A stretch of 64,000 nt of DNA from Actinomycetes bacterium (lineage in GTDB: Bacteria > Actinomycetota > CALGFH01), in assembly GCA_036000965.1 (NCBI GenBank), contig DASYUT010000206.1:1193-65192 (forward strand). The letters run 5' to 3'. The notes under the pieces were generated by a model, which did no database searches, was not told the DNA's origin, and saw nothing but the letters and a program-made list of their open reading frames with translations. Of the stretch, positions 35,593 through 61,005 are shown in pieces (positions within the stretch are counted from its first letter, which is position 1; every line of letters begins with the position of its first letter). The position numbers were made by a program, and so were the translations under genes.

Positions 35593-36624
35593 ATGCGAGT
35601 GATGGTGCTGGGGGGGACGCGGTTCATCGGGGCCGCGATCGTCGAGGAGCTCGACGGGCACGGGCACGAGCTACTCATCGTGCACCGGGGGGAGCACGAG
35701 CCCGACGACCTGCCCGCCGCCGAACACCTGCACGCCGACCGGCGTGACCTGCCCCACCTGCGGGGTGCGGTCCAGGAGTTCGGGCCGGAGGCGCTGGTCG
35801 ACACCTGCGCGCTCACCGCCACCGACGCCGAGACGGCGCTCGCCACCCTCGGCGACGACGTCCGCCTGCTGGTCCTGTCCAGCGTGGACGTCTACCGGGC
35901 GTTCGGGTCGGTGCTGACCGGGGTGGAGACCGACCCGCTCCCGCTGGACGAGACCTCACCGGTGCGCGCCGAACGCTTCCCCTACCGGGGTCGCATGGAG
36001 CGGGGCGACGACTACGAGAAGCTCGAGGTCGAGGAGCCCTACCTGGCCAGGGCGGCCACCGTCTGCCGGCTCCCGATGGTGTACGGCGAGCGCGACTACC
36101 AGCGACGCGAGGAGGCGATCCTGAGCCGGGTGCGGGCCGGGCGCTCCCGCATCCCCATCGGGACAGGCAGCTGGCTGTGGACCCGCGGCTACGTCCGCGA
36201 CATCGCCACCGGGGTCCGCCTCGCACTCGAGTCGGACGCTGCCTTGGCCGAGGTGCTCAACCTGGGGGAGAGCCGGAGCTGGTCGATGGGCCTGTGGGCC
36301 AGGCACGTCCTGGAGGCGGCCGGTGCCCAGGCCGAGCTGGTCCGGGTGCCCGACGTGCTCCTCCCCGACGACCTCGAAGAGTTCGGCACTATCCAGCAAC
36401 ACCTACTCGTGAGTTCCGCCAAGGCGCGGGATCTCCTCGGCTGGGAAGAGACGGACCCCCATGAGGCGCTGACTCGCTCGGTCGCCTGGCACCTGGCCAA
36501 CCCGCCCGGGGACGCCGACCGTGACTTCGAGGCCGACGACCGGGCGCTGGCCGCGACCGACGACCGGGCGCTGGCCGCGGCCGACGAGTACCTGGCGTCG
36601 CAGCAACCGGCTAGCCACGCCTGA
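35593..36624 (+). CDS. NAD-dependent epimerase/dehydratase family (extended SDR) protein; contains an in-frame 24-bp ×2 duplication near the 3' end (36531-36578)
   Basis: 'MRVMVLGGTRFIGAAIVEEL' Rossmann GxxGxxG; RBS AAAAGGAGCC; the 869-aa ORF in the track is a read-through artefact. Confidence 0.8.
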   Translation: MRVMVLGGTRFIGAAIVEELDGHGHELLIVHRGEHEPDDLPAAEHLHADRRDLPHLRGAVQEFGPEALVDTCALTATDAETALATLGDDVRLLVLSSVDVYRAFGSVLTGVETDPLPLDETSPVRAERFPYRGRMERGDDYEKLEVEEPYLARAATVCRLPMVYGERDYQRREEAILSRVRAGRSRIPIGTGSWLWTRGYVRDIATGVRLALESDAALAEVLNLGESRSWSMGLWARHVLEAAGAQAELVRVPDVLLPDDLEEFGTIQQHLLVSSAKARDLLGWEETDPHEALTRSVAWHLANPPGDADRDFEADDRALAATDDRALAAADEYLASQQPASHA

Positions 36625-38215
36625 ACGGGTAAACAGGATCTCCAACACCGCGGATTGGGACACTGTCGATGACGCAGGGGTGGAAGACATAGCTGTCCGC
36701 ACCGATGGGAATATCGAACTGGTCCATGTCGGCGTGAGAGTAGAAATGGGCTTCGCCGCCTGCCTCAACATAGCCGAGGAGCCCGTTCTGCCAGAGGACG
36801 GAGGGGAAGCTGGTGGTGCTGTCGAACTTCTCGTCGGCGCGCATGCTCATCAGTTCCAGCTCTTCCCTTGAGAAGCGGTCACGGCCGACTTCCCTGATGA
36901 TGCCGCGAACCTGGTGGTCGATTCCAGCCAGATACTCCATGGTGCTGGTGTAGATCTCGGAGTACCCGTGACGCGCGGCGTCCTTCGGCATGGTGTCTGC
37001 GGCGATCTGGTTGCTGGTCTGGGCGAGCTGCGAATCCCCGAACCGCTTGGACGAGCGGGAGACGACGCGTCGCAGGTCCGGCTGGGAGAACTCCGTGCGG
37101 CCAGCTGCCCTCTGCCGCAGGATCGCGGCGCAGATCGCATTGCCCAGGGAAACGATGTCTCTCGGGATGAGCCGCGTGTGCCGAAGAAGGTAGTCGCCGG
37201 CCCTCTCGTGCACTCCGCGGGCCTCGTTCTTCACGACAGGGGTTCCAAGCCAGGCTTCAACTGGGTTCGCATAGGTCCCTGCGGCCATGAGGAAGGACTG
37301 GTCGAGCCTGCGCAGCTTCTCGAGCAGCAGGTATTCGATCGACTCTCTATCCCAGCTGAGGACGCGAATATGCGGCTCATCGTGGTATCGCGGTGCATGC
37401 TCGGAGCGGTAGACAGACGACATCACGATGTCCCGGACGGAGATCACGATGTGCAGGCGCCCGCCGAGCCTCGGGTCCCTCAGGAAGCGCATCACCTGAT
37501 AGAACAGGCCCTTCTGGCACCGCAGCCAGTACATCGGCGCATGGCTGAACTCTTCGTCCACCGCGTCAAGGTAGAAGAAAATCGGCGGACACGTCCGGAG
37601 GATCTCCGCGAGGACGTCTTCGAGGTCGTCCCACGCGGGGTCGTCCAGGTAGTCCGTCAGCTGGCGGGCCTTGTTCTGCCCATTGATGATCGTGCGCATC
37701 TCCGCGTAGATGGATCTCGGCCTCCGGAACTCACCCAGCAGGTGTCCGTATTCTCCCCTCAGCGTTCCCGCCTGCTCGTGTGAAAGGTAGGGCTTGAGGT
37801 CCTCGTGGGCGAGAAGATGGGTCGCCAGAGAGCTCAGTACCGCACGGTTCCACACCTGCATCCACTTCTCGGTGAGGAATCGTTCTGGAAACCATTGGCA
37901 AGCCTTGACGACAGCTTCTGTCGATGGGAGGTTCTGCTGGGGATGGCCGGCGTAGACGGATCCCTGGTGTGCCTGGAAGCTGCGCAGACGCCGCAGGTAG
38001 ACGGTCTTCCCGGCACCAAGCCGTCCAACGATCACGCGAGTTGTGGCGTCGTCAGCCGGTGCCGCGAGAGCTCCAAAAGCAGGATTGCCCCGGAAGTCGA
38101 CGAAATCGCTCAGAATGTTTGCGATGGGCGCCCTGGAGCCATCTGGATTTCCAAATGGGCCTGTTGGGTCTGAGAACCCTTCCACTATCAGGTTGCCGTC
38201 CAGCTGGGCGTGCAT
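36611..38215 (-). CDS. P-loop NTPase of unknown function (534 aa), low-GC islet gene 2
   Basis: Walker A 'VIVGRLGAGKTVYL', Walker-B-like 'IFFYLDAVDEEF', possible sensor 'LHIVISVRD'; GC content ~57% against ~70% background; stop overlaps the epimerase stop convergently. Confidence 0.75.
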   Translation of the reverse strand: MHAQLDGNLIVEGFSDPTGPFGNPDGSRAPIANILSDFVDFRGNPAFGALAAPADDATTRVIVGRLGAGKTVYLRRLRSFQAHQGSVYAGHPQQNLPSTEAVVKACQWFPERFLTEKWMQVWNRAVLSSLATHLLAHEDLKPYLSHEQAGTLRGEYGHLLGEFRRPRSIYAEMRTIINGQNKARQLTDYLDDPAWDDLEDVLAEILRTCPPIFFYLDAVDEEFSHAPMYWLRCQKGLFYQVMRFLRDPRLGGRLHIVISVRDIVMSSVYRSEHAPRYHDEPHIRVLSWDRESIEYLLLEKLRRLDQSFLMAAGTYANPVEAWLGTPVVKNEARGVHERAGDYLLRHTRLIPRDIVSLGNAICAAILRQRAAGRTEFSQPDLRRVVSRSSKRFGDSQLAQTSNQIAADTMPKDAARHGYSEIYTSTMEYLAGIDHQVRGIIREVGRDRFSREELELMSMRADEKFDSTTSFPSVLWQNGLLGYVEAGGEAHFYSHADMDQFDIPIGADSYVFHPCVIDSVPIRGVGDPVYPFRRG

Positions 38216-38249
38216 CCGACCTCCATCACTCGCTCGTCGGTGGCTCGCA

Positions 38250-39251
38250 CTAGAACGGGGAGCCGGGAGACAGGAACAGGTGCTGGGCGACTCGCCACGC
38301 CTCGTGTAGCTTTGCGGCGTGCTCCCCGGACAGGTGTGAGACCGCGACCTCCTCGTTCGTCTTGTGGAACAGTTCCTTGACGGTGAAGCCAGACTCGGAG
38401 GTGAGGCTCTGAAGGCCGTCCTCGGTTATGACCCATTCATCGTTTGGCATCTCGATGATCGGCTTGAATCGAGGCATGGGCATGGCGGCGGACGGCGGCC
38501 GAGTTCGAGCTTCGATGGCGAGTCGAAGCAGATGGATCAGCTGCTGCAACGCTCCAGCGGGATCGAAGTGCTCGTCACCCGGGTAGCGGTTGAGCCGTTG
38601 CAGCTCTGGGGCCACCGAACCTGTCCACTCACCCGCGCTCGTTGCCGCAGACCAGGGAATCGGTTGCTGTCCACGCCTGGCGATGGTGGGTGCTGTGGCG
38701 TCGTGCGGGACCGTCCCATCCTCTTCCTCGAGCCCGACCTCGAGAACCGGCGTTCCGTTGCCGAGCCATGCCGACAGGGGAAATCGCAGTCTGAAGGTGG
38801 TCCCGGGCAGCCGGACTCGCACGCCTCGGTCTGAAACGGCCCCCAGCCCTCGTGCCCTGTCGAGTAGCGCGGTGATGTTCTCGAAGGTTGGCTCCTCCTT
38901 GAATCTGTTGAAAGCGTCGTCGTCGGTTCGACGGCGCTGCTGCACGTGCTCCAGGGTGACGCTGCGCAGGTCGTCCAGCCGTGCATCCGTCTGTTGGCGG
39001 ATCGCCTCGATCTCGTGCGACAGCTGTTCGACCGATGAGCGGGTGTGCTGCTCCTGTTGGCGAACCTCGCGTATTCGTCGTTCAAGGATCGTCTGCACCC
39101 AGTACAGGGGGCCGAACAGTGCCAGCGCCGCTCCGAGGTCGAGCCACACCGAGGGAGCGTAGTCTCCTCGGGCCAACGAGCCCATGACGATCAGGGAGGC
39201 GCCGAGGGCCACCGTGGCCGACGGGATGACCCAGCCTTGTCTTGGCCTCAT
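38250..39251 (-). CDS. membrane protein with two N-terminal TM helices and a coiled-coil region (333 aa), low-GC islet gene 1
   Basis: TM helices 'SATVALGASLIVMGSL' and 'WLDLGAALALFGPLYWV'; heptad-like 'ILERRIREVRQQEQHTRSSVEQLSHEIEAIRQQTDARLDDLRSV'; 34-bp gap to the NTPase gene suggests an operon. Confidence 0.7.
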   Translation of the reverse strand: MRPRQGWVIPSATVALGASLIVMGSLARGDYAPSVWLDLGAALALFGPLYWVQTILERRIREVRQQEQHTRSSVEQLSHEIEAIRQQTDARLDDLRSVTLEHVQQRRRTDDDAFNRFKEEPTFENITALLDRARGLGAVSDRGVRVRLPGTTFRLRFPLSAWLGNGTPVLEVGLEEEDGTVPHDATAPTIARRGQQPIPWSAATSAGEWTGSVAPELQRLNRYPGDEHFDPAGALQQLIHLLRLAIEARTRPPSAAMPMPRFKPIIEMPNDEWVITEDGLQSLTSESGFTVKELFHKTNEEVAVSHLSGEHAAKLHEAWRVAQHLFLSPGSPF

Positions 39252-39931
39252 GCGGAACCTGCTCTGGGTGGTCGTTCCCTGGCCAAGATCCCACGCCTGT
39301 CACAGGCGGGGCGTGAGCCCGCTGGGCAACGGGGGAAGGCCTCGTCCGAGCGTCGGTCTCCTGCCGGCCGGTGACCACCGCGCACGCCGATCAGGCGTGT
39401 CAGTTCGGGCGGGCTGTCCGCCATCGCCACCGCTCCGTTCGATCGCCACCTGCGGGCTTTGAGCGGCTCGATCGTGGCATCCCCGTCACGGGACGTAAAG
39501 GGCAAGGATCGTGTCGGGCGGCGCCTCGCGCGCCGGCAACAAGTACACGACGACAGCGGCCGCTGCGTCGGCCGCTCGGTCGGCGATGGTTCCTTGCCAG
39601 CATCGGGCTGTGGGGGCGACCATAGACGCAGGCTCACGCCGCGAGCAGGCGCATCTCACCCTCGACGACCCCGAGTGCGGGGGCGACCATGGACGCAGGC
39701 TCACGCGGGGCGAGGAGCCATGGCCAACGAGAGCGAGCGGCTTGAATGGCGAGGAGCAGAGCGAGCAGCGCCGTGCCCGAAGGCCGCGAGTCGGGTGGCC
39801 GGGTCGCCGACGCCCCTCGGGTCCAGGTGATAGCTGGCGAGGCACCGGCGGGTGGCCAGGTCGCCGACGCCCCTGGGGCCCAGGTGATAGCCGGCGAGGC
39901 ACCGGCGGAGGAGGCTGCTCCGGCCCAGGAG

Positions 39932-41887
39932 ATGCTGACGGAGGCGTTCGAGCTGGAGGCATCCGAGGGCCCGAGCCCGTTCCCGCCCATCGCCGAGTAT
40001 GCGTTCCTGTCCGACTGCGAGACCAACGCGCTGGTAGCGGCGAGCGGCAACGTCGAGTGGCTGTGCCTGCCGCGCCCCGACGGGTGGAGCGTGTTCGCCT
40101 CGATCCTGGACCGGGCGGCGGGCGGCTTTCGGCTCGGCCCGACAGGGGTCACGGTGCCGGCTGGGCGTCGCTACCTCCCCGGCACCCTGGTCCTGGAGAC
40201 GACCTGGCGGGCCCGCAGCGGCTGGATCGTCGTCCGCGACGCGATGTGCATCGGCCCGTGGTACCACCACCAGCGGCGTTCGGGGACCCACCGCCGGCCG
40301 CCGACCGACCACGAGGCCGAGCACACCTTGCTTCGTACAGTGAAGTGCATCATCGGCAGCGTGGAGCTCGCACTGGACTGCGAGCCGGTGTTCGACTACG
40401 GGCGGACCGAGGCCCGCTGGGAGTACGCGGGGGCGGGCTACGGCGAGGCGATCGCGCACGGCGGTGACGGGGAGGTGCCGTTGCGGCTGGTCACCGACTT
40501 GCGCGTCGGGTTCGAGGGCCGCGGCGCCCACGCGCGCACCACGCTGCGCGAGGGCGAACGGGCGTTCGTCGCGCTGTGCTGGCCTCGGTCGCAGTGGTCG
40601 GCGTCGGAGGAGCACTGGGCGGAGCGGGCCCCGCCCAGCACGTGCGACGAGGCCTTCGAACGCATGGAGCGGACCGGGGAGTTCTGGCGTGGCTGGATCA
40701 ACCAGGGGATGTTCCCGGAGCATCCCTGGCAGAGCTATCTGCAGCGCAGCGCGCTGACGCTCAAGGGCCTGACCTACGCGCCAACCGGTGCGCTGCTGGC
40801 GGCGGCCACGACGTCGCTGCCCGAGACGCCCGGGGGCGAACGCAACTACGACTACCGCTACACCTGGATCCGTGACGCCACCTTCATGCTGTGGGGCCTG
40901 TACACCCTTGGCTTCGACCGCGAGGCCAACGACTTCTTCTACTTCGTGGCCGATGTCTGTGAGGGCGAGAAGGATCTCCAGATCATGTATGGGGTAGGCG
41001 GTGAGAAGGACCTGCCTGAGCAGACCCTCGACCACCTGGACGGCTACGAGGGGGCACGGCCGGTCCGGATCGGCAACGCGGCTGCGGCCCAGGCCCAGCA
41101 CGACGTCTGGGGCGCCGTGCTCGACTCGGTCTACCTGCACGCCAAGTCGAGGGAGCACCTGCCCGAGCGGGTCTGGCCGACCCTCAAGCGGGCGGTCGAG
41201 TGCGCAGCGGCCAATTGGCACAAACCCGACCAGGGGATCTGGGAGGTGCGCGGCGAGCCCAAGCACTTCACGTCGTCGAAGCTGATGTGCTGGGTGGCGT
41301 GCGACCGTGGCGCCCGGCTGGCGAAGCTGCACGGCGATCGCGAGCTGGCCACCAGCTGGCGCAAGGCGGCCGAGGAGATCCACGCCGACATCTGCGAGCA
41401 CGGCGTGGACCAGCGGGGGGTGTTCGTCCAGTCCTACGACTCCACCGCGCTCGACGCTTCGGTGCTGCTCATGCCGCTGCTGCGCTTCCTGCCCCCAGAC
41501 GACCCGCGGATCCGGAAGACCGTGCTGGCGGTCGCGGAGGAGCTGACCGTCGACGAGCTGGTGCTGCGCTACCGGGTGGGCCAGACCGACGACGGCTTTT
41601 CGGGTGAGGAGGGTACGTTCACGATCTGCTCGTTCTGGCTGGTCTCCGCGCTGGTGGAGATCGGCGAGGTCGCCCGCGCGCGCCAGCTGTGCGAGAAGCT
41701 GCTGTCGTATGCCAGCCCGCTGCAGCTCTATGCCGAGGAGATCGACCCGCGCAGCGGTCGGCACCTGGGAAACTTCCCCCAGTCGTTCACCCACCTGGCC
41801 CTGATCAACGCGGTCATGCACGTGATCCGGGCCGAGGCCGGCGGCGACGCGACCCGCTTCGCACCCCAGGGCGTGTCGGTGCTTTGA
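39932..41887 (+). CDS. glycoside hydrolase family 15 protein (glucoamylase/trehalase-like); maximal ORF from 39746 would add an N-terminal repeat-containing extension
   Basis: 'PTGALLAAATTSLPETPGGERNYDYRYTWIRDATF' GH15 catalytic region; (alpha/alpha)6 barrel length. Confidence 0.8.
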   Translation: MLTEAFELEASEGPSPFPPIAEYAFLSDCETNALVAASGNVEWLCLPRPDGWSVFASILDRAAGGFRLGPTGVTVPAGRRYLPGTLVLETTWRARSGWIVVRDAMCIGPWYHHQRRSGTHRRPPTDHEAEHTLLRTVKCIIGSVELALDCEPVFDYGRTEARWEYAGAGYGEAIAHGGDGEVPLRLVTDLRVGFEGRGAHARTTLREGERAFVALCWPRSQWSASEEHWAERAPPSTCDEAFERMERTGEFWRGWINQGMFPEHPWQSYLQRSALTLKGLTYAPTGALLAAATTSLPETPGGERNYDYRYTWIRDATFMLWGLYTLGFDREANDFFYFVADVCEGEKDLQIMYGVGGEKDLPEQTLDHLDGYEGARPVRIGNAAAAQAQHDVWGAVLDSVYLHAKSREHLPERVWPTLKRAVECAAANWHKPDQGIWEVRGEPKHFTSSKLMCWVACDRGARLAKLHGDRELATSWRKAAEEIHADICEHGVDQRGVFVQSYDSTALDASVLLMPLLRFLPPDDPRIRKTVLAVAEELTVDELVLRYRVGQTDDGFSGEEGTFTICSFWLVSALVEIGEVARARQLCEKLLSYASPLQLYAEEIDPRSGRHLGNFPQSFTHLALINAVMHVIRAEAGGDATRFAPQGVSVL

Positions 41888-46733: not shown

Positions 46734-47063
46734 AGCCTTGTGCGCTTCATCCCGGTGACCTCCCCGCAGCCTGCCTACCTGCCAAAGCGCAGGTCAGGTA
46801 TGGATAGCTCGCATACCGTGCCCAAGGGGAGAAGCAGTGTCAATACGCACGGCGTGACCTCGGTAGCGGCGACCGGGCGGCAGCCGCGGCGGGCGTTCAT
46901 CCTGTGACATCCTGTGACATCCTGTGACGCGGAAGCCCCTCCTGGACCACCTGTAACGCCGAAGCCCTGCTGAACGGCTCATGTAGAGGTAGAGAACGGG
47001 GGCGACGTGCTGACAGCCCGCACACCGGACCGGGTTGCTCGCCTCCGGACCGAAGGGAGAACG

Positions 47064-48918
47064 CATGCGGAAGCCGTTGCGGGTGTTGCTCATCGTCGCG
47101 GTGGTGTCCCTGGTCGCCGCGCCGGCGGGTAGCGCCGTCGCGTTCAACGCCGACACGCTGGTCACCGTGGGCAGTCCACCGTCGCCGTTCTCGCAGAACA
47201 AGCAGAACGAGCCGGCCGTGGCGATCGACGCCAACCACCCCACCGTCCTGGTGGCAGGCGCGAACGACAACATCGACATGGAGGCCTGCAACGCCGGTAC
47301 CGACAACACCTGTCCGTTCACCGACGGCGTCGGCGGGTCAGGCGTCTCCTTCTCGTTCAACAGCGGCGACTCGTGGTTCCAGCCCACCTACACCGGCTGG
47401 AGCGCCCGCAACTGCGTGGGCGCGCCGGGCGACAACGACCCGCCCTGCCAGCCCCAGGTCGGTCCGATCGGCACGCTGCCCGGCTACTTCGAGGCGGGCC
47501 TGGTCTCCGACGGCGACCCAGCGGTGGCGTTCGGTCCGGTGTACAGGAACGGCAGCTTCTCGTGGGCGAACGGGTCTCGCCTGTACTACGCGAACCTGAC
47601 GTCGAACTTCCCGGGCCGGCAGGGGGTCAGGGGGTTCGAGGCGATCGCGGTGTCGCGGATCGACGGGCCGGCCTCCACCGGGCTGACCCAGGCCATCGTG
47701 TCCAACCAGGCCAACTGGCAGGCGCCGGTCATCGTGAGCAAGCAGAACTCGGCGCTGTTCGCCGACAAGGAGCAGGTGTGGGCCGACAACGCCTCGTCGA
47801 GCCCGTTCTTCGGGCACGCCTATGCCTGCTACGGGGCCTTCCGGGGCGTGCCGGGCACGTCTCAGCCGCTGGTGGTGGCGACGTCGACCGACGGCGGTGA
47901 CAGCTGGACCAACCACCAGGTCACGCCGGCCACGAACAACCCTGTCACCCCGAGGGGCTTCGGTCGGTCGGGCTGCACGATCCGGACCGACAGCCACGGC
48001 GTGGCGTACGTGTTCGCCTACCAGTTCGGCTCCGGGCTCCCCGGCAGCGGCGTCCAGATCATGAGCAAGTCCTTCGACGGCGGTCGCCACTGGACCCAGG
48101 CGCGGCCGATCCTCCCGGCGACCGACCTCTGCAACGCGTTCGAGCCGTCGATCGGCCGGTGCGTCGAGGACGGGATCGGCGGTGCCCGCGACGACCTCGG
48201 GCCCTCTCCGAGCGTGGACATCGCCAACGGCGCCCCGACCGGCGCCGACGCCACCAACCAGATCGTCGACGCCTGGGCGGACGGCCGTGACGGCCTCAAC
48301 AACGAGCACGTGATGTTCGCCTCCTCCAGCAACGGGGGCGCCACGTGGACCGGCCCGACCAGGATCGAGACGGCCGGGGACCGCGGGTACTATGCCGCGC
48401 CGGCGATCTCGCCGAACGGAACCGACGCCTGGGTCGTGTACAACGCATTTACCACACCGTTCCGCAACGACACCACGTCGCCCCGGAACCTCGTCGGGGT
48501 GGTCAAGCATGCGGACGTCGCGGCCAACGGCACCGTGGGAGCCTTCACCCAGGTCCACCGGAGCCCCGGCGGCGATCCCAGGGGCAGCAGCCAGAACAAC
48601 CTGGCGGCGGAGTTCCTCGGCGACTATGTCTACGCCGCGGCCACCCGCACGTACGGGGCCGCCGTCTGGAACGACGCCCGGCGGGCCGCCGACTGCCCGG
48701 CCATCGACGCCTACCGCCTGGCGCTGCACAACGAGGCGCTGGTGGCCGGCGGACCAGTGGCTGAACCGGAGGAGCCGCGGGGCGAGGAGGAGGCCGTCCA
48801 CCACCTGCTGAAGACCCAGGAGCCGCATGCCGTCGCCCCACCCGTGCAGCAGGTGTGCGAAGGGACGTTCGGCAACTCCGACATCTTCGGCGGGACCTAC
48901 GCCGACCCGACTCCGTAG
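47064..48918 (+). CDS. secreted BNR/Asp-box repeat protein (sialidase-like beta-propeller)
   Basis: Signal peptide; Asp-box repeats 'STDGGDSW', 'SFDGGRHW', 'SSNGGATW'; RBS GAAGGGAG. Confidence 0.7.
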
Positions 48919-51218: not shown

Positions 51219-51334
51219 CCGCTCGGGCCTGGTGAACTGGACGGTACCGTGGCCCGTGACGTTCAGGGCTCGTTCAGCGACACTTCAGCCCCAGCGGGGC
51301 AGGATCCGTCGTGTGGCTGGCGGAGGAGAGCACG

Positions 51335-52012
51335 ATGCGGGTGCTGGTGGTCGAGGACGAGAAGCGGCTCGCGGCCGGGCTCCGCAACGGGCTCGAGGCC
51401 GAGGGGTTCGCCGTGGACGTGGCCCTGGACGGCACCGACGGGTTGTGGATGGCCCGGGAGAACCCGTACGACGCGATCGTGCTGGACATCATGCTGCCCG
51501 GGGTCAACGGCTACAAGGTCTGCGCCACCTTGCGGGAGGAAGGGGTCTGGACGCCGATCCTGATGCTCACCGCCAAGGACGGGGAGTGGGACGAGGTCGA
51601 GGCGCTCGACACCGGGGCCGACGACTACCTGACCAAGCCCTTCTCCTACGCGGTGCTCCTGGCCCGGCTGCGGGCGCTGCTGCGGCGGGGCGCTCGTGAG
51701 CGGCCAGTGGTGCTCGAGGCGGGCGACCTGCGGCTTGATCCGGCGGCCAGACGGGCGTGGCGAGGCGAGGCCGAGGTGGAGCTGACCACCCGGGAGCTCG
51801 CGCTGCTGGAGTTCCTGTTGCGCCGCCGGGGCGAGGTCGTGTCGAAGCGGGAGATCCTCGAGCACGTCTGGGGCTACGACTTCGAGGGCGACCCGAACAT
51901 CGTCGAGGTCTACGTGCGGCATCTCCGCAACAAGCTCGACCGGCCGTTCGACCGGGACTCGATCCAGACGCTCCGGGGGGCCGGGTACCGCTTGGCGGCG
52001 CAGGGTGGCTGA
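51335..52012 (+). CDS. OmpR-family response regulator
   Basis: Receiver domain 'VLVVEDE…D…ILDIMLPG…LMLTAKD' plus winged-helix 'LTTRELALLEFLLRRRGEVVSKREIL'. Confidence 0.9.
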   Translation: MRVLVVEDEKRLAAGLRNGLEAEGFAVDVALDGTDGLWMARENPYDAIVLDIMLPGVNGYKVCATLREEGVWTPILMLTAKDGEWDEVEALDTGADDYLTKPFSYAVLLARLRALLRRGARERPVVLEAGDLRLDPAARRAWRGEAEVELTTRELALLEFLLRRRGEVVSKREILEHVWGYDFEGDPNIVEVYVRHLRNKLDRPFDRDSIQTLRGAGYRLAAQGG

Positions 52013-53390
52013 GCGGCGGCGGTCCTGGCCTGCCCGGACCGGGACGGTGCGGGTGCGCACGACCGTGGCCGCCGTGATGGTCGTCGGGGTGGCCATGGCC
52101 GTGGGTGGGGTGCTGATGGTGACGGTGCTGCGGGACGCGCTCACCCGCCAGGTGGCGGCCGCGGCCCGGCTGCGGGCCATGGACGTGGCAGCGGTGCTCG
52201 CGTCGGGGGCCGAGCCACAGAAGCTCGCGGTCGACGACGACGAGGACCTGATGATCCAGGTGCTGGACCGGGACGGCAGGGTGGTCATGTCGAGCCCCAA
52301 CGTCAAGGGGCTGCCTGCGGTGGCCCGGCTGCGCCCTGGGGAGTCGGCCCCGGTCGAGGTGCCGATCGACAACGACGACGAGTTCCTGGCCGTGGCCACC
52401 GCCGCCGACACCGGCGACGGCCGCTTCACCGTCGTGGTGGCCCGCAACGTCGAGACGGTGGCCCAGTCGGCCCGGATCGTCACCGGCATGCTGGCGGTCG
52501 GGCTGCCGCTGCTGCTGCTGCTGGTCGGTGTGACCACGTGGAGGGTGGTGGGCCGGGCGCTGGCGCCGGTCGAGGCGATCCGCGGCGAGGTCGACGCGAT
52601 CTCCGCCGCCGAGCTGCACCGCCGGGTCCCCGACCCGCCGGGCGACGACGAGATCGCCCGGCTGGCCAAGACGATGAACCGGATGCTCGACCGGCTCGAG
52701 CGCGCCCAGGTCCGCCAGCGGCGCTTCGTGTCCGACGCCTCCCACGAGCTGCGCTCACCGGTCGCCTCCATCCGCCAGCACGCCGAGGTCGCCCTGGCCC
52801 ACCCCGACCGCACCACCACCGTCGAGCTGGCCGAGACGGTGCTGGCCGAGGACCTCCGGGTGCAGCGGCTGGTGGAGGACCTGCTGCTGCTGGCCCGAGC
52901 CGACGAGCACACCCTGGGGCTGCGCCGACGCCTCGTCGACCTGGACGACCTGGTGTTCAACGAGGCCCGCCGGCTGCGGGACGCCAACGGGGTGCGGGTC
53001 GACACCACCGCGGTGTCGGCCGGCCGGGTCGACGGAGACGCCGGCGGGCTGCGCCGGGTGCTCCGCAACCTCGGCGACAACGCCGCCCGCCACGCCCGCG
53101 GCCGCATCTCGTTCGCGCTCGCCGAGCGCGACAGCGTGGTGGTGCTGGCGGTGGACGACGACGGGCCGGGGGTCCCCGAGGCCGACCGCGAGCGGGTCCT
53201 CGAGCGCTTCGTCCGCCTCGATGACGCCCGGGCCCGCGACGCCGGTGGCAGCGGGCTCGGCCTGGCCATCGTGGCCGAGCTGGTCGCCGCCCACGGCGGC
53301 ACGCTCGCCGTCGCCGGCAGCCCTCTGGGTGGCGCCCGGATCGAGGTCACCCTCCCACGTGGCGGCAACGGCGCCGCGCCGGGCAAGTGA
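52005..53390 (+). CDS. sensor histidine kinase (TM, HAMP, HisKA, HATPase_c)
   Basis: H-box 'FVSDASHELRSPV', N-box 'LRNLGDNAARHA', G-boxes 'DDGPGV' and 'GSGLGLAIV'; overlaps the response-regulator stop. Confidence 0.9.
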   Translation: MAERRRSWPARTGTVRVRTTVAAVMVVGVAMAVGGVLMVTVLRDALTRQVAAAARLRAMDVAAVLASGAEPQKLAVDDDEDLMIQVLDRDGRVVMSSPNVKGLPAVARLRPGESAPVEVPIDNDDEFLAVATAADTGDGRFTVVVARNVETVAQSARIVTGMLAVGLPLLLLLVGVTTWRVVGRALAPVEAIRGEVDAISAAELHRRVPDPPGDDEIARLAKTMNRMLDRLERAQVRQRRFVSDASHELRSPVASIRQHAEVALAHPDRTTTVELAETVLAEDLRVQRLVEDLLLLARADEHTLGLRRRLVDLDDLVFNEARRLRDANGVRVDTTAVSAGRVDGDAGGLRRVLRNLGDNAARHARGRISFALAERDSVVVLAVDDDGPGVPEADRERVLERFVRLDDARARDAGGSGLGLAIVAELVAAHGGTLAVAGSPLGGARIEVTLPRGGNGAAPGK

Positions 53391-54176: not shown

Positions 54177-57100
54177 TCAGGCACCTGCCACTGACGGCGC
54201 GCCCGGGCCTCCGCCGGCGCTCTGGCGGGACCTCCTGGACTTGGCGAACCGCAGGTACAGGATCGGGACGATGAACAGGTTGAGCAGGGTCGAGGTGACC
54301 AGGCCACCGAGGATGACCACGGCCATCGGGTGCTCGACCTCGTGACCGGGGATGTCGCCCAGCACCACCAGGGGCACCAGGGCCAGCCCGGTCGCCAGCG
54401 CGGTCATCAGGATCGGCGCGAGCCGCTCGCGTGCCCCGCGCAGGACGAGCCCAGGCCCGAAGGTCTCGCCTTCCTCCCGTTCGAGATGCTGGCAGTGGTT
54501 GATCAGCATGATGCCGTTGCGCGCCGCGATCCCGAGCACCGTGAAGAACCCGATGAGCGAGCCGAGCGAGATGATGCCGCCAGCTGTGTACGCCGCCAGT
54601 ACCCCGCCCACCAGCGCCATCGGCAGGGTCAGGAAGAGGAGCGTGGCCAGGCGCCAGCTTCCCCCGAACGCCGCCTGCAACAGCAGGAAGATCCCGATCG
54701 CGGCGGCACCCCCGAAGGCGAAGATGCGCCGCTGGGCGGCCTGCCGCTCCGCGTACTCCCCGAGCAGCTCCGCGTGGAACTCGCGCGGGAACTGGATTCC
54801 GTCGATGGTGCGCTTGACGTCGGCCACCACGGAGCCGAGGTCCCGTCCCTGCACGTTGGCGTCGACGTCGATGCGGCGGGCGAGGTTCTCGCGTTCGATG
54901 AGGTTCGGGGTCGGCTTGATCTGCACCTGGGCCACGTCCCCGAGCCGCACGTGCCCGCCGCCTGGCGTGTCGATCAGCAGCGCGCGGATGTCGTTCAGGC
55001 TGTTGCGTGCGCTGGGCGTGCTCCACACGTGCACGTCGTAGGCCTTGCCGTCCCGGAAGATGTCACCGACCTCTTCGCTCGCCACCCAGGTGGCCGCCGC
55101 CCGGCGCACGTCGCCTGGCTTGAGCCCGTAGCGTTCGGCCTTGGCGAGGTCGACCTTGACGTCGACCTGTGGCACGTCGGCTTGGAGCGACACGTGCAGA
55201 TCGACGATGCCGCCGATCTTCGAGAGGGCTGCCTCCGCCTCCTTCGCCTTGCTGCGGAGGGTCGCCAGGTCCTGGCCGTAGATGCGCACGACGATGGCGT
55301 CGCTCGTTCCCGCCAGCACCTCCCTGATCCGCTCCTTCAAGTAGGTCTGCACGTCGCGCTGGAGCCCCGGGTAGCCGTCGACCACCTTCTGGATGGAGGC
55401 CACCGTCTGGTCGTAGTCGACCTTGGGATCGACGCTGATCCAGTTCTCGCCGAAGTTCACGCCGACCACTTCGTCGGCCAGCAGGGCCTGGCCGATGTGG
55501 GCGCCGAAGTTGCGCACCCCTGGGATGGACCGCAGCTCGCGACTGGCCGCCGTGGTGATCCGGGTCATCTCCGGATGGGAGGTGTCGGGCTTGGTCACCC
55601 AGTGCATCAGGAAGTCCCGCTCCTTGAACGAAGGAAGCAGCGACTGCCCGAGCATCGGGTAGACCATGAGGCCGAGCAACGCGATGACCGCGACGGTGGC
55701 GAACGCCGAGAGCGGCCGGTGGATGAGCCGCGCCAGGACCGCGTGATAGCCGCGCTGGAGCACGCGGTACAGCGGGGGGTCGCGGCGGTCGAGCGGCGCG
55801 CTCCGCAGCAGGATGAGGCTCATCGCCGGCGTCACGGTCAGCGCGATCACCAGCGAAGCCAGCACCGCCAGCCCGTACGAGAAGACGAGCGGCCGGAAGA
55901 ACGCGCCGGACAGGCCCTGCAGGAAGAAGATCGGCATGACCGCCACCACGGCGATCAGCGTCGCGTAGATGATGGGGCTGCGCACCTCGAGCGAGGCCTC
56001 GAGCACGACCGACGCGGTGGACCTGCCGGTCCCTTCCCGGCGATGCTGGCGCAGGCGCCGCAGGATGTTCTCGACGTCGATGATGGCGTCGTCGACCACG
56101 ACCCCGACGGCGATCACCAGCCCCGCCAGCACCATCGTGTTGATCGTGGTGCCGCGCAGGTAGAGCACGATCACCGCCGCCACCAGCGACAGCGGGATCG
56201 CCACCAGGCTGATCAGCGCGGTGCGCCACTCGAAGAGGAAGGCGCCGAGGACCAGCACCACCAGCAGGCAGCCGAGCAGCAGCGCCCTGGTGAGGTTGTG
56301 GATCGCCATGTCGATGAAGGTCGCCGGCCGGAAGATGGTGGTGTCGATCTCCATCCCGGAAAGGCCGGGCCGCAGCGCGTCGAGCGCCGCCTCCACGCCT
56401 TGCGTCACCTGCAGGGTGTTGGCGCCGGGGAACTTCTCGACGATGAGCATGAGCCCAGGGCCGTCGTTGATGACGGCGTCACCGGCCAACGGTTGGTGGC
56501 CTTCCACCACGTTGGCTACGTCGCCGATGCGCAGCGGCTTGCCGTTCTTTCGCTCGAGCGTCACCTTGGCCAGGTCGTCCGGGGTCACGATGGGCAGGAC
56601 GTGGCGGACCCCGAGCCGCTGGTTGGGGGTCTCGATGAACCCCCCGGTGCCGATCATCGCCCCGTCGGAGAACCGCAGGATCCCCGCGTCCAGGGCGTCC
56701 GCGGTGCCCTCCATGACCTGGTCGAGCGAAACGCCGCTGGCCTGCAACCGTTCCGGTTCAACCTGCACGTGCATCTGCTTGATCCGCTCGCCCCAGATCG
56801 CGATGTTCGCCACGCCTGGCACGCGCAGCAGGCGGTTCCTGATCGTCCAGTAGGAGATCGCCGACATGTCGATCAGCGACACGCTCTTGGAGGAGAGCCC
56901 GATCTTCATGACCCGGCTGGTCGCCGAGAGGGGTTGCATCATGAACGGCGGCGCCGCCCAGGTCGGCAAGGTCGGCGTCACCGTTGCGACGCGCTCCTGC
57001 ACCAACTGGCGCGCCCGCAGCAGGTCGGTCCCGGTCTCGAAGATGAGGACGATGGACGACAGCTGGGGGACCGACTTGGAGCGCATCACGTCAAGCCCCT

Positions 57101-57329
57101 CCACCCCGCTGAGCGCCTCCTCGAGCGGCACGGTGACCAGGGCCTCCACCTCGGACGAGGAGAGCCCGAGGCAGGGGGTCTGGATCTCCACCCGTGGCGG
57201 TGCGAACTCGGGGAAGACGTCCACCGGCATCTGTGCCAGTTGCCCGACGCCGAAGAACATCATCGCCGCGGCGACCGCGACCACGAGGAAGCGGAACTTC
57301 AGGCTCGACCCAACGATCCATCGCATCAT
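54177..57329 (-). CDS. CusA/CzcA-family heavy-metal efflux RND transporter (copy 1)
   Basis: 1050 aa, 12-TM RND architecture; N-terminus '[27 protein letters not shown]…' typical of the HME-RND family. Confidence 0.9.
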
Positions 57330-57348
57330 GGCTGAGAACGTCCTTCAG

Positions 57349-57804
57349 TCAGTGTCCGCCACCGATGCCGACCTCGGTGCCGAACAACTCGGCGGCGCCG
57401 ACGGTCACGACCGCGGTGCCAGAGGGTGGGCCGGCCGAGAGGACCGCCTGGTTCCCGTTGATCTGGTCGATGCTGATGGAGTGCCGGACGAACACGAGGG
57501 GCTCGGGGTTCGTGTAGGCCCAGGCGGCGCCCTTCGGGTCGTAGATCACCGCGGCGTAGGGGATGACCTTTCGCTGCTTCCCGCCGACGTTCGCGTCACC
57601 GACCTCGGCCGTCTGGATACCGAGCCGCTTGGCCGCCTGCGCGGTCAGCGTGATGCGGCCGAGACCCGTCGCCTCGTTGTGCTCGACCTTGGCGGGTTCG
57701 ATCTTGCTCTTGCTTGCCCCTTCTGCCGCCTTCTGCGTGCACGCCGCGAGTTGGAGACAGGCGATGAGCAGGAGCACGATCATCCATCGGTTACCGTGTC
57801 GCAC
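57349..57804 (-). CDS. lipoprotein resembling the C-terminal (membrane-proximal/beta-barrel) part of an RND periplasmic adaptor; truncated MFP-like
   Basis: Lipobox 'LQLAAC'; 'IPYAAVIYDPKGAAWAYTNPEPLVFVRHSISIDQINGNQAVLSAGPPSGTAVVTVGAAEL' resembles the C-terminal end of CusB-type adaptors. Confidence 0.5.
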   Translation of the reverse strand: MRHGNRWMIVLLLIACLQLAACTQKAAEGASKSKIEPAKVEHNEATGLGRITLTAQAAKRLGIQTAEVGDANVGGKQRKVIPYAAVIYDPKGAAWAYTNPEPLVFVRHSISIDQINGNQAVLSAGPPSGTAVVTVGAAELFGTEVGIGGGH

Positions 57805-57816
57805 CGAGCTTCCCCC

Positions 57817-60800
57817 TTATGCGTTCACCTTGGCCATAACCAGGTCGACCTGGGGCCCGCTGACAGGTTCCGGTTCGGGGCGACGAGCCCCGAACCGCAG
57901 GTAGAGGGCGGGCACGATGAACAGGTTGAGCAGCGCCGAGGTGACCAGGCCACCCAGGACGACCACGGCCATCGGGTGCACGATCTCGTGACCGGGGTTG
58001 TCGAGCACCACCAGGGGCACCAGGGCCAGCCCGGTTGCGAACACGGTCGTCAGGACCGGCGCGAGCCGTTCCCGTGCCCCGCGCACGACGAGCTCGGGGC
58101 CGAAGGTCTCGCCTTCGTCACGCTCGAGACGGCGGTAGTGGCTGACCAGCAGGACGCCGTTGCGCACTGCGATCCCCAGGACCGTGAAGAACCCGGCGAG
58201 CGCACCGAGCGACATGATGCCGCCGCCCGCGAGTGCCGCCAGCACGCCGCCCACCAGCGCCACGGGCAGGGTCAAGAAGACCACCGCCGCCAGGCGCCAG
58301 CTGCCGAAGGCCGCCTGCAGGAGGAGGAAGATCCCGATGGCGGCGGCTGCCGTGTAGTTGACGACGCGCCGCTGGGCGGCCTGCCGGTCCGCGTAGTCGC
58401 CGAGCAGCTCCGCGTGGTACTCGAGCGGGAAGCTGAGCTGCTTGATGCGACGGTCCACGTCGCCAGCGACCGCGCCGCGGTCACGGCCCCGCACGTTGGC
58501 GCTGACGTCGACGAGACGCGAGACCGCTTCACGCCGGATGACGTTGGGAGCCGCCGCGACGCGCACCTCGGCAACGTCCCCCAGCCGCACGTGCCCGCCG
58601 CCGGGCGTGTCGATCAGGAGCTCGCGAACACTGGTCAGGCTGGTGCGCGTCGCGGGCGTGCTCCACACCTGCACGTCGAACACCTTCTGCTCCTCGAACA
58701 AGCTGCCGACCGCGATCCCTGACAGCAACGTGGTCGCCGCCCGGCGCACGTCGCCTGGCTTGATCCCATAGCGCTCGGCCGCGGCGAGGTCGACCTCGAC
58801 CTCCAACGTCGGCTCCTCGACCGGCTGCTCCACCTTCGGGTCGACGACACCGTCGATCCCCGAGATGGCCTGCCGCACCTCCTCGGCCTTGCTGCGGAGG
58901 ACCTCCAGCTCCTGGCCGTAGACGCGCACGACGATGGCGTCGTCGCCTGCCCCCGCCGGTGCCTCGCCCGCCACCGGCAGTACCCCGCTGGTCCTGTCCT
59001 TCAGATAGGTCAGCACCTCGTGCTGGAGCCCTGGGTAGCCGTCGACCACCTGCTGGATGGAGGCCACCGTCTTGTCGTAGTTGGCCTCGGGGTCGATGCT
59101 GACCCACAGCTCGCTTGAGTTGATCCCGACCACCTGGTCCGACATCACCGCACGCCCCACATGGGCGCCGACGTTGCGGACCCCCGGAGTGGACCGGAGC
59201 TCGTTGCTGACCTGGGCCACGATCCGGGTCATCTCCGGACCGGAGGTGCCGGGCGCGCCGTCCCAGCGGATCAGCAGGTTGCGCTCCTTGAACGGGGGAA
59301 GCAGCGACTGCGACCGCCCGGCCCATGGCAGCACCGCCAGGCCGAGCAGGACGATGACGCCGGCGGTCGCGACCACCGCGCGCGGCCGGTTGACGGTGCG
59401 CGCGAGGACCCCGTCGTAGCGACCCTGGAGCCGGCCCACGAGCGGGGACTCGCGGCGCCCGGCCGGCGGCCTGGACAGGAGCAGGACGCTGAGCGCTGGC
59501 GTGACGGTCAGCGCGACCACCATGGAGGCGAGCACCGCCAGCCCGTAGGAGAGGGCGAGCGGCCGGAAGAACGCGCCGGACAGGCCGCCCAAGAGGAGGA
59601 CCGGCACGAGGGCGAGAAGGATGATCAGCGTCGCGTAGAGGAGCGCGCCGCGCACCTCGAGCGAGGCCTCGAGGATGACCGCTGCGGTCGACTTGTCGCT
59701 GTCCTCCTGGCGATGCTGGCGGAGGCGCCGCGCGACGTGCTCGACACCGACGATGGCGTCGTCGACGACGATGGCGACGGCGAGCACCAGTCCCGCCAGG
59801 ACCATCGCATTGAGTGCCGCCCCACGCAGGTAGAGCACCAGCACTGCCGCAGCCAGCGACACCAGGATCGCCACGAGGCTGATCAGCGCGGTCCGCCAGT
59901 TGAACAGGAAGACGACGAGGACCAGGAGCAGGAGCGCGCAACCCAGGAGCAGCGGCAGGGCGAGGTTGCCCATGGCCGTCTCGATGAAGGACGCCGGGCG
60001 GTAGACGGAGGAGTCGATCTCCATGCCAGCCAGACCGGGCCGGAGCGCCTCGAGCGCCGCGTCCACCCCTCGGGTGACTTCGAGCGTGTTGGCCTCCGGG
60101 AACTTCTCGACGACGAGCATGAGGCCGGCACCGTTGTTGACGCTGGCGTCACCGATGAGCGGCTGGTGGTCCTCCACCACGCTGGCCACGTCACCCAGAC
60201 GCAGCCCCCGGCCGCCCGCCCGCCCCTTCTCGATGGTGACCTTGGCCAGGTCGGCGGGGGTCGTGATGGGCAGGACGTGGCGCACGCCGAGCCGCTGGTT
60301 GGGGGTGTCGATGAACCCTCCGGTGCCGGGCGTCGATGCGTCCAGGAAGGTCAGTGGCGACACCCACAGGGCGTTCCCGGTGGTCTTGATGACCTCGAGC
60401 AGCGACACCTTGTGGGCTCGCAGCTTGTCCGGGTCGACCTGCACCTGGAGCTGGCGCTCCCGCTGGCCCCAGATGGCGACGTTCGCCACGCCGGGCACGC
60501 CCATCAGGCGTGGCCTGATCGTCCAGCGGGTGAGCACCGACTGCTCGATCGCGCTCAGGTTCTTGGAGGAGAGCCCGATCATCATGACCCGGCTCGACGA
60601 CGACAGGGGCTGGAGCATCGTGGGCGGCTTCGACACCTGCGGCAACGCATGCGCCTGGGTGAGGCGCTCCGCCACCAACTGCCGTGCACGGAACAGGTCG
60701 GTCCCCGGCTCGAAGACGAGCACGATCGACGACAGTCCGGGAACCGACTCCGAGCGAATTGTCTCAAGCCACGCCACGCCGTTGAGCAGGTCGGCCTCCA

Positions 60801-61005
60801 GCGGGACGGTGATCAATTGCTCCACCTCGTCCGCGGAGAGACCGAGGGCCTCGGTCTGGATCTCCACGTACGGCTGGGTGAACTCGGGCAGGGTGTCCAC
60901 CGGCATGTTGCGAAGCTGGGTGACACCGAGGAACAGCGTCGCCGCAGCGACCGCCACCACCAGGAGCCGAAACTTCAGGCTCGACCCGACGATCGAACGC
61001 ATCAC
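57817..61005 (-). CDS. CusA/CzcA-family heavy-metal efflux RND transporter (copy 2)
   Basis: 1062 aa paralogue of copy 1 with the same architecture. Confidence 0.9.

Follow-up and report, generated by a model that had tools for sequence, protein, structure and literature searches.

Two questions are raised by a compact islet of visibly foreign composition in the 64,000-nucleotide (nt) stretch of contig DASYUT010000206.1 (assembly GCA_036000965.1) from an uncultured actinomycete, which we call the window: how did the islet come to lie between two ordinary genes, and what might it do there? The islet consists of a two-gene operon and its own upstream region of about 340 nt, and it encodes a 333-amino-acid (aa) membrane protein and a 534-aa soluble nucleoside triphosphatase (NTPase). 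We show that this operon of about 3.0 kb was horizontally acquired and inserted downstream of an epimerase gene in the era-recO interval. Its NTPase belongs to the Sll1717 family of P-loop ATPases, which are joined or neighbored in other bacteria by a succession of different partners. By analogy with systems of that kind, we tentatively read the pair as a defense or conflict module in which the NTPase would be the switch and the membrane protein the output module, a reading that we hold with slightly less than even confidence.

The inserted operon and its slot

Both genes are read from the minus strand, with the membrane-protein gene (38250 to 39251) upstream and the NTPase gene (36611 to 38215) downstream, and the operon junction between them is a 34-nt spacer (38216 to 38249, minus strand) with a Shine-Dalgarno sequence, GGAGG, at 38220 to 38224, 4 nt 5' of the NTPase ATG. 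The coordinates of the two open reading frames (ORFs) thus agree with a preliminary description of this DNA, made from the letters alone, which had reported two co-oriented genes 34 bp apart. It had also placed the edge of the islet across the stop codon of the epimerase, and the epimerase ORF indeed converges on the NTPase gene with an overlap of their 3' ends of 14 nt (36611 to 36624). On the other side, the glycoside hydrolase family 15 (GH15) gene (39746 to 41887) is divergent from the pair. The 5' region of the operon (39252 to 39590, minus strand), which is presumed to hold its promoter, arrived with the insert and is without homology to the junction sequences of relatives; no sigma-70 consensus, Rfam family, or notable terminator was found in it, the consensus scan being uninformative for a high-GC actinomycete.

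The compositional dip that set this segment apart at first sight is real, but the 57% GC initially given for it is too low. The two genes have a total GC of 0.617 and 0.645, that is, 62 to 65%, against 0.71 to 0.79 for their neighbors, and 400-nt windows across the islet have 0.60 to 0.66, versus 0.72 to 0.75 in the flanks. The GC content at third codon positions (GC3) is a clearer signal of foreign composition than total GC because it is 0.77 for each of the two genes versus 0.91 to 0.98 for the flanking ones; no other large gene called in the window goes as low, and the window's other genes mostly fall between 0.82 and 0.99.

An epimerase-anchored metagenome scan yielded 80 related loci, and the pair is found at the epimerase in none of them, including the closest, in which Era is 95 to 96% identical to that of the window. 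Nucleotide homology to L092, L093, L094, and L098 stops at about 36583, 3 nt short of the ancestral stop codon of the epimerase, and homology to relatives picks up again at about 39590 to 39676. The breaks delimit an insert at 36584 to 39590, with boundaries that are approximate by about 30 nt on the left and about 80 nt on the right. In L098, the epimerase directly adjoins GH15, so the empty site that the preliminary description had proposed to look for does exist; in L092, the closest relative (Era, GNAT, and epimerase being 96, 94, and 92% identical, respectively), the order is epimerase, BNR-like gene, GH15. Together, the foreign composition and the absence of the pair from the junction in L092, L094, and the empty L098 establish the horizontal acquisition that had been suspected. 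By its atypical composition, its defined junctions, and the lack of the pair at this site in close relatives, the segment qualifies as a genomic island; searches at the islet for a tRNA, an integrase, an Rfam element, and direct repeats on its flanks were negative.

The nearest homologs of the pair (87 and 84% identical; L172 and L173) lie on contigs of lower GC (0.67; GC3, 0.85), which fits a lower-GC donor for the window copy. There, the pair adjoins an alpha/beta-hydrolase gene, i.e., a context other than that of the window. The low GC3 is a feature of the window copy and not of the module: in L012 to L016, the GC3 of the pair is host-like (0.93 to 0.996), so that the module appears to be an old resident in some lineages, and the window copy is a recent arrival. 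Of the two signs that the preliminary description had named as speaking for a native origin, conserved position and host-like GC, the first is missing (0 of 80 junctions) and the second is seen in these five other genomes.

The same slot carries other cargo in other relatives: a low-GC3 HTH_31-DUF5753 gene with a small unannotated ORF (L109, 2614 to 3715), HTH_31-DUF5753 with DUF6879 (L132, 1145 to 2595), a SARP/BTAD-STAND-TPR regulator of about 1,090 aa (L149, 11448 to 14720), an unannotated ORF of 1,050 to 1,400 aa in the position of that regulator (L115 and L126), and APH-kinase plus ABC/Wzz-like genes (L094, 12086 to 19092). On these comparisons, the position downstream of the epimerase appears to be a hotspot for gene gain.

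As a separate observation, the window has about 28 kb between era, which extends to 34057, and recO, which lies from 62357 onward; the interval is about 8 kb in L004 and about 12.6 kb in L014. The BNR-like gene that L092 and L004 have beside the epimerase lies at 47035 to 48918 in the window. The interval as a whole looks plastic and prone to rearrangement.

Three local duplications lie within the 3.4 kb around the insert, and none of them is duplicated in the aligned relatives. At the left junction, 24 nt of native epimerase 3' sequence are tandemly duplicated (36528 to 36575, plus strand), and the window epimerase runs on past this duplication into a new tail that ends at 36624. At the right junction, a 31-nt repeat (39609 to 39706, plus strand) has copies at 39609 to 39639 and 39676 to 39706, with a spacing of 67 nt and an identity of 94%. 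Farther on, a 57-nt tandem repeat (39792 to 39905; 93% identity), whose unit is single in L092, encodes a 19-aa tandem repeat in the N-terminal extension of GH15. The repeats near the right edge had been proposed as insertion scars; they are present there but do not bracket the islet in the manner of a target-site duplication, and attachment sites or a target-site duplication can be ruled out, as the repeats at one junction differ from those at the other and each is native sequence duplicated in place. Illegitimate recombination or replication slippage may have left them behind.

The two proteins

The preliminary description could match neither protein to a named family. For the NTPase, this does not hold: it scores 82.9 bits against NCBIfam NF047389 ("P-loop ATPase, Sll1717 family"; cutoff, 75 bits; E = 2.6e-23) and is therefore a member. 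The alignment pairs aa 21 to 392 with profile positions 1 to 353 of 454, the last approximately 100 positions being unmatched. To our knowledge, the curators have attached no function to this family. A full-text literature search for "Sll1717" returned no paper, and the literature on Sll1717, PDC-S15, and FRG with ATPase yielded nothing on Sll1717-family NTPases; in Kaur et al. 2020 (PMC7159879), FRG, Sll1717, and Cdc6 are not mentioned, and the mentions of FHA concern other things. Searches with Pfam gave only subthreshold matches to AAA_16 (13.9 bits; cutoff, 32.6) and NACHT (12.0 bits; cutoff, 26.7), and a Protein Data Bank (PDB) sequence search with the NTPase detected no solved structure.

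Invariance of residues was judged over 49 NTPase sequences with identities down to 56%. All three of the motifs first picked out by eye are present, and two more were recognized, all on the minus strand. (i) The Walker A motif GRLGAGKT (aa 64 to 71; 38003 to 38026) has G64, G67, A68, G69, K70, and T71 invariant. (ii) The extended Walker B motif FFYLDAVDEE (aa 213 to 222; 37550 to 37579) is of the NACHT-like hhhhDxxDE form, with D217 and D220 invariant and E221 and E222 nearly so, and lies on strand 212 to 216 of the model. (iii) The sensor-1 strand HIVISVRD (aa 255 to 262; 37430 to 37453; model strand, 254 to 261) carries the invariant R261. (iv) The lid motif HTRLIPRD (aa 346 to 353; 37157 to 37180), in which H346, T347, R348, I350, P351, R352, and D353 are invariant, stands at the start of lid helix 351 to 370 and may supply a sensor 2 arginine. 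(v) An N-terminal motif, GPFGNPDG (aa 19 to 26; 38138 to 38161), has G19, P20, F21, G22, P24, D25, and G26 invariant and N23 nearly invariant in a region of low predicted local distance difference test score (pLDDT).

The AlphaFold2 model of the NTPase (pLDDT, 83; predicted template modeling score, 0.80) shows a poorly ordered N terminus, an α/β ATPase core, a helical lid, further helices, and a predicted winged-helix-like unit (aa ~445 to 495; 36731 to 36883, minus strand), and the chain ends at residue 534 with no repeat domain in the model. Comparison values were 11.0 for the archaeal AAA+ ATPase SSO1545 (2fna; 283 residues aligned), 8.8 for PAB2304 (2qen), 8.7 for Cdc6/ORC, 8.5 for TnsC, 8.5 for the SIR2-STAND protein EfAvs5, 8.4 for BrxC, 8.3 for RADAR RdrA, 7.4 for SeAvs3, and about 7 for plant NLRs. 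The reminiscence of STAND proteins that had been noted in the sensor motif is borne out insofar as this is a STAND/AAA+-type switch ATPase: Walker A, the extended NACHT-like Walker B, and the sensor-1 arginine are all there, with K70, D217, D220, and R261 invariant in the 49 homologs. Two other marks of STAND proteins are missing, namely, a significant match to a STAND model in Pfam and a C-terminal repeat sensor (TPR, WD40, or LRR). The conserved lid arginine, R352, a candidate sensor 2, resembles that of AAA+ Cdc6/ORC, unlike STAND. Sequence and model together thus appear to place the NTPase at the border of AAA+ (ORC/Cdc6) and STAND and not among canonical Avs or NLR proteins.

The membrane protein (AlphaFold2 pLDDT, 79) has the architecture that the preliminary description had read from it, an anchored coiled coil followed by a globular domain, all encoded on the minus strand. 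Transmembrane (TM) helix 1 (aa 8 to 26; 39174 to 39230) has a Kyte-Doolittle maximum of 1.83 and coincides with a model helix. The probable TM helix 2 (aa 34 to 54; 39090 to 39152) is less hydrophobic, carries the conserved motif LFGPLYW, with G40 and L49 invariant, and forms the start of one continuous model helix of about 85 residues (33 to 119), the rest of which is a long charged helix or coiled-coil stalk (aa 55 to 119; 38895 to 39089). The C-terminal alpha/beta domain (aa 123 to 326; 38274 to 38885) has three invariant motifs, G-x-EE (173 to 176), LNRYPGD (220 to 226), and E-x-RTR (247 to 251). Since the hairpin is bounded by positive residues at both ends (MRPR before TM1 and ERRIREVR after TM2), both termini, the stalk, and the globular domain are probably cytoplasmic, a topology that would bring the stalk and the globular domain within reach of the soluble ATPase. 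The protein matched no Pfam or NCBIfam family, and PDB sequence-profile searches gave nothing meaningful. Its family comprises 76 to 85 clusters (90% identity), all at least 58% identical, and a profile search for remote relatives returned that one tight family only.

Partners of the NTPase across its family

The membrane-protein gene lies directly upstream in all 14 loci in which the NTPase is at least 77% identical to that of the window (L001 to L006, L012 to L016, L173, and L176/177), the gene upstream of the NTPase in L172 being cut by the contig end, and it is found in none of the 75 genome-scan loci with NTPases of 61% identity or less. The gap between the genes is 11 to 31 nt in some relatives and gives way to a 1-nt overlap in others. 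Across 45 pairs, the proteins codiverge (r = 0.82), with about twice the rate of change in the membrane protein, and both genes are under purifying selection, with ratios of nonsynonymous to synonymous substitution rates (dN/dS) of 0.10 to 0.25 for the NTPase and 0.21 to 0.47 for the membrane protein. The pair also occurs in the CDA-era-epimerase…recO-uppS region of L004, L014, L016, and L176 and in unrelated contexts in L001, L012, L013, L015, and L173, that of L001 being a hopanoid/ilvC cluster. ORFs of 893 to 907 aa in L015 and L016 that resemble fusions of the two proteins were rejected as open-frame artifacts of high-GC DNA; the two genes occupy different frames.

An exhaustive profile search with the NTPase recovered 762 clusters (50% identity) at E ≤ 1e-3, of which 376 were at ≤ 1e-30, and most of the 762 span profile positions ~10 to 525, so that the core of about 520 aa is full length in them. 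Several of these proteins are fusions, with identities to the window NTPase given here over about 500 to 530 aa. At the C terminus, the core is joined to a Ser/Thr kinase (P0197 and P0103; 59%), a TIR domain (P0203; 47%), or a trypsin-like protease (P0287; 33%), and at the N terminus, it is joined to a caspase (P0277; 36%), a CHAT domain (P0304; 35%), or a second AAA/STAND-like ATPase (P0239; 40%). A few relatives bear HTH_3 or MarR domains.

Some N-terminal extensions match nothing in Pfam or PADLOC (P0226, P0251, P0285, P0298, P0318, P0322, and P0337; also P0198 and P0260); one group is about 150 aa long and another about 520 to 590 aa, and they may be further effector or adaptor domains. 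The 678-aa database protein P0060 combines an alpha/beta-hydrolase with 67% of the NTPase (85% identical); this is perhaps an artifact of gene calling or assembly because a gene for such a hydrolase runs convergently up to the stop codon of the NTPase gene in L172 and L173.

A motif scan of 185,579 species genomes found 144 NTPase loci. Kinase fusions account for 61 of the 78 species-level loci (Trebonia, Streptosporangiaceae, and related groups), and a gene for an FHA-domain protein (147 to 178 aa) adjoins the NTPase in 14 of the 78, in 13 of them downstream. The neighboring genes of the 78 loci fall into 533 clusters, among which only FHA and FRG recur; as 468 are singletons, synteny is essentially absent, and the NTPase gene is clearly accessory and mobile over evolutionary time. 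The copies in the kinase-fusion loci (L017 to L091; e.g., L029:9623-13105) are 75 to 98% identical to one another (median, 88%) without shared synteny.

Stand-alone NTPases come from Kineosporiaceae, Geodermatophilus, and Nitriliruptorales (among them P0044, with 70% identity to the window NTPase). Directly 3' of those that are 57 to 70% identical to it, an FRG-domain gene was found in eight contexts, with a gap of 13 nt or less in the seven that were measured, and the partner changes from FRG to the membrane protein between NTPase identities of 70% and 77%. The FRG partner matches the PADLOC candidate PDC-S15 (E = 1.7e-59), and the FRG protein is regarded by the Aravind group as an immune effector of the ADP-ribosyltransferase fold, probably an NADase (PMC9503650). 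An adaptor domain common to the membrane protein and the other partners of the family was tested for and rejected (hhalign probability with FRG, 0.2%). In L174 (50 to 4742), an NTPase that is 70% identical and its FRG gene have an rve-family integrase and a small ORF about 900 nt away, and these might belong to a mobile element that carries the module.

A possible defense or signaling switch

One NTPase with swappable TIR, caspase, protease, kinase, and NADase modules is the architectural signature of NTP-dependent conflict systems, as known from Avs- and NLR-like proteins, and it is by this analogy that a defense or conflict role may be proposed for the window pair. The layout of an NTPase next to a membrane effector had been likened from the start to that of antiphage systems. 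By association, the likeness stands (TIR, caspase, CHAT, trypsin-like, and kinase fusions, with FRG/PDC-S15 as a neighbor), but the PADLOC match and the defense neighborhood that would go with it are absent.

There is a likeness in design to Avs1-5 and bNACHT proteins, with which the window NTPase shares a P-loop switch ATPase, the NACHT-like Walker B (DxxDE), and the sensor-1 arginine and with which its family shares swappable effectors (TIR, caspase/CHAT, protease, and kinase). The window protein differs in having no TPR, WD40, or LRR sensor, the lid being followed instead by about 150 aa of helices and the winged helix; it has no PADLOC Avs match, and its candidate effector is a separate gene. 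From the archaeal AAA+ proteins (SSO1545/2fna and PAB2304/2qen; Pfam ATPase_2) and Cdc6/ORC, it is set apart by a sequence identity of 8 to 13%, by the lack of a Pfam ATPase_2 or ORC-CDC6-like match, and by the GPFGNPDG motif, which is not in those families as far as tested. The ATPase-plus-effector systems RADAR (RdrA/RdrB), Septu (PtuA/PtuB), and PARIS (AriA/AriB), as well as BREX BrxC, have no sequence-profile match to the window pair; the second component of the two-gene systems is a deaminase or nuclease versus a membrane protein in the window.

As in SLATT two-TM proteins, the TM effectors of CBASS and Pycsar, and the two-TM effectors of retrons, the membrane protein has an N-terminal TM hairpin followed by probably cytoplasmic helices and is encoded next to a nucleotide-dependent switch. 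The membrane protein has no Pfam SLATT match at E ≤ 1, only spurious coiled-coil matches, and it carries an additional orphan alpha/beta domain of about 200 aa; the locus is without a cyclic-nucleotide synthase or sensor domain. PDC-S15 is comparable in that FRG genes hold the partner position of related NTPases, as the membrane protein does in the window. However, there is no FRG in the window, and the PDC-S15 entry names one gene on its own, with no mention of this NTPase. Within NF047389, the two-TM coiled-coil partner is specific to a small actinobacterial subclade. The pair falls outside Avs, NACHT, SLATT, and every PADLOC system, and its most suitable place is in the uncharacterized Sll1717 ATPase family, as a two-gene, membrane-partner variant of what would be NTPase-centered modular conflict systems.

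If the defense reading is right, the Sll1717-family ATPase would be a conserved switch or sensor with interchangeable outputs, attached by fusion or encoded by an adjacent gene, and the output module in the window subclade would be the 333-aa membrane protein. The resting ATPase would be nucleotide locked. Its C-terminal helical and winged-helix part would sense a trigger, most plausibly a macromolecule arising from infection or stress, upon which the ATPase would exchange or hydrolyze nucleotide and oligomerize. The oligomer might then bind the membrane protein at its stalk and alpha/beta domain in the cytoplasm, and the clustering of the TM hairpins would damage the membrane, with growth arrest or abortive infection as the outcome. 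What the data establish are the insertion and the operon, the fold class and motifs of the ATPase, the strict pairing of the two genes, and the range of effector domains on homologs; we infer the trigger, the direction of signaling, the effect on the membrane, and any antiphage role from the analogies set out above.

Several observations weigh against a role in defense. In PADLOC, which the preliminary description had proposed to use (here with PADLOC-DB v2.0.0), neither protein was significantly matched, the NTPase having no match at all and the membrane protein only a nonsignificant one to LeoA (E = 0.68). In a scan for defense islands, about 4 of the 138 nearest neighbors of family members matched PADLOC, all of them generic (ABC, kinase, and SNF2), so that the family shows no visible enrichment in such islands, and the neighbors in the window are ordinary: GH15, a YNCE-type beta-propeller lipoprotein, CorA, a two-component system, and two resistance-nodulation-division (RND) pumps. 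Sequenced plasmids and phages and the IMG/VR contigs yielded no copies. For an immune sensor, the conservation of the NTPase is unusually high: the membrane class is 57 to 61% identical to the other classes of the genome scan, and the protein is 80 to 83% identical across genomes in which Era is 76 to 80% identical (dN/dS, 0.10 to 0.25). The repeat-type C-terminal sensor of Avs and NLR proteins is missing from its model, and in the five genomes with host-like GC3, the pair looks like a long-term resident. Finally, a Foldseek search of the PDB with the globular domain of the membrane protein gave a best E of 0.68 and no recognizable fold relative, so that its effector role is proposed by analogy only. 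If the core is nonetheless that of an immune switch, its unusual conservation would suggest that it guards a conserved host process and not fast-evolving phage proteins.

The strongest competitor, somewhat unlikely in our estimate, is nonimmune signal transduction, in which a STAND-like switch, by the logic of MalT, AfsR, or PknK, would relay a cellular or envelope cue to varied outputs. The kinase and FHA proteins would then form a phosphorylation output, the membrane protein would be an anchored adaptor that localizes or gates the ATPase, and the winged helix could bind DNA. Such a role would suit the commonest arrangement in the family, the kinase fusions (61 of 78 loci), which often have FHA, the classic phospho-signaling combination of actinobacteria, as well as the HTH_3 or MarR domains on some relatives and the winged-helix-like C terminus predicted for the window protein; the very high sequence conservation, strong purifying selection, and absence of a defense-island association also point this way. 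Against it, the same core is found with TIR, caspase, CHAT, trypsin-like, and FRG/PDC-S15 modules, which are typical of suicide or immune effectors; synteny is absent even at a median identity of 88%; the family is rare, at 144 loci among the 185,579 species genomes; and the window copy was acquired horizontally into a variable slot.

A further alternative is a selfish addiction or stabilization cassette of the toxin-antitoxin (TA) type, in which the membrane protein would be a latent toxin restrained by the ATPase, and the pair would persist because its loss harms the cell, with no role against phages. The operon is compact and tightly coupled, the pair moves between genomic contexts, a TM hairpin protein is a plausible toxin, and the same slot in relatives holds the TA-like HTH_31-DUF5753 and DUF6879 pairs. 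We nevertheless consider this improbable: the pair is missing from plasmids and phages, which often carry addiction modules, its proteins are far larger than the usual TA components, and the invariant ATPase motifs and many enzymatic effector fusions are more in keeping with a regulated switch than with an antitoxin. An ATPase system of the membrane that is native to the lineage and has a housekeeping role, for example, in envelope biogenesis, cell division, or secretion, would accord with purifying selection on both genes, with the pair's presence in the era-recO neighborhood of L004, L014, L016, and L176, and with its host-like GC3 in L012 to L016, but it is disfavored as very improbable by the foreign composition in the window, by the 80 of 80 epimerase-anchored junctions that lack the pair even where Era is 95 to 96% identical, by its unrelated contexts in L001, L012, L013, L015, and L173, by the tiny membrane-protein family (about 85 clusters), and by the patchiness and death-type effector fusions of the NTPase family.

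To return to the preferred reading of a defense module, its broader form, that Sll1717-family ATPases are an unrecognized family of bacterial immune or programmed-death switches and the window pair a membrane-effector variant with an orphan fold, is possible but more doubtful than the narrower one. If defense or suicide is indeed its function, a new NTPase family would be added to the bacterial STAND/AAA+ immune repertoire, one that is cataloged by NCBI without a function, a Pfam model, or a PADLOC entry, and with it an unusually compact sensor and a membrane effector of orphan fold. Its source would be soil Actinomycetota, and the defenses of that phylum are poorly charted. The partners of this one core form an effector-swap series along NTPase identity, namely, the membrane protein (at least 77%), FRG (70%), kinase (59%), and TIR (47%), which could serve as a comparative system for how a single switch activates chemically different effectors. 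Should the function be signaling instead, a new actinobacterial NTPase-kinase-FHA pathway would be at hand. Either way, the insertion, mapped at near nucleotide resolution, is a clean case of recent gene gain in an uncultured lineage.

Elsewhere in the window, two RND transporter genes of the AcrB family (1,050 and 1,062 aa) stand in tandem with a 151-aa ORF between them (54177 to 61005), and an OmpR-type two-component system (51311 to 53390) adjoins them, all of these being unrelated to the gene pair.

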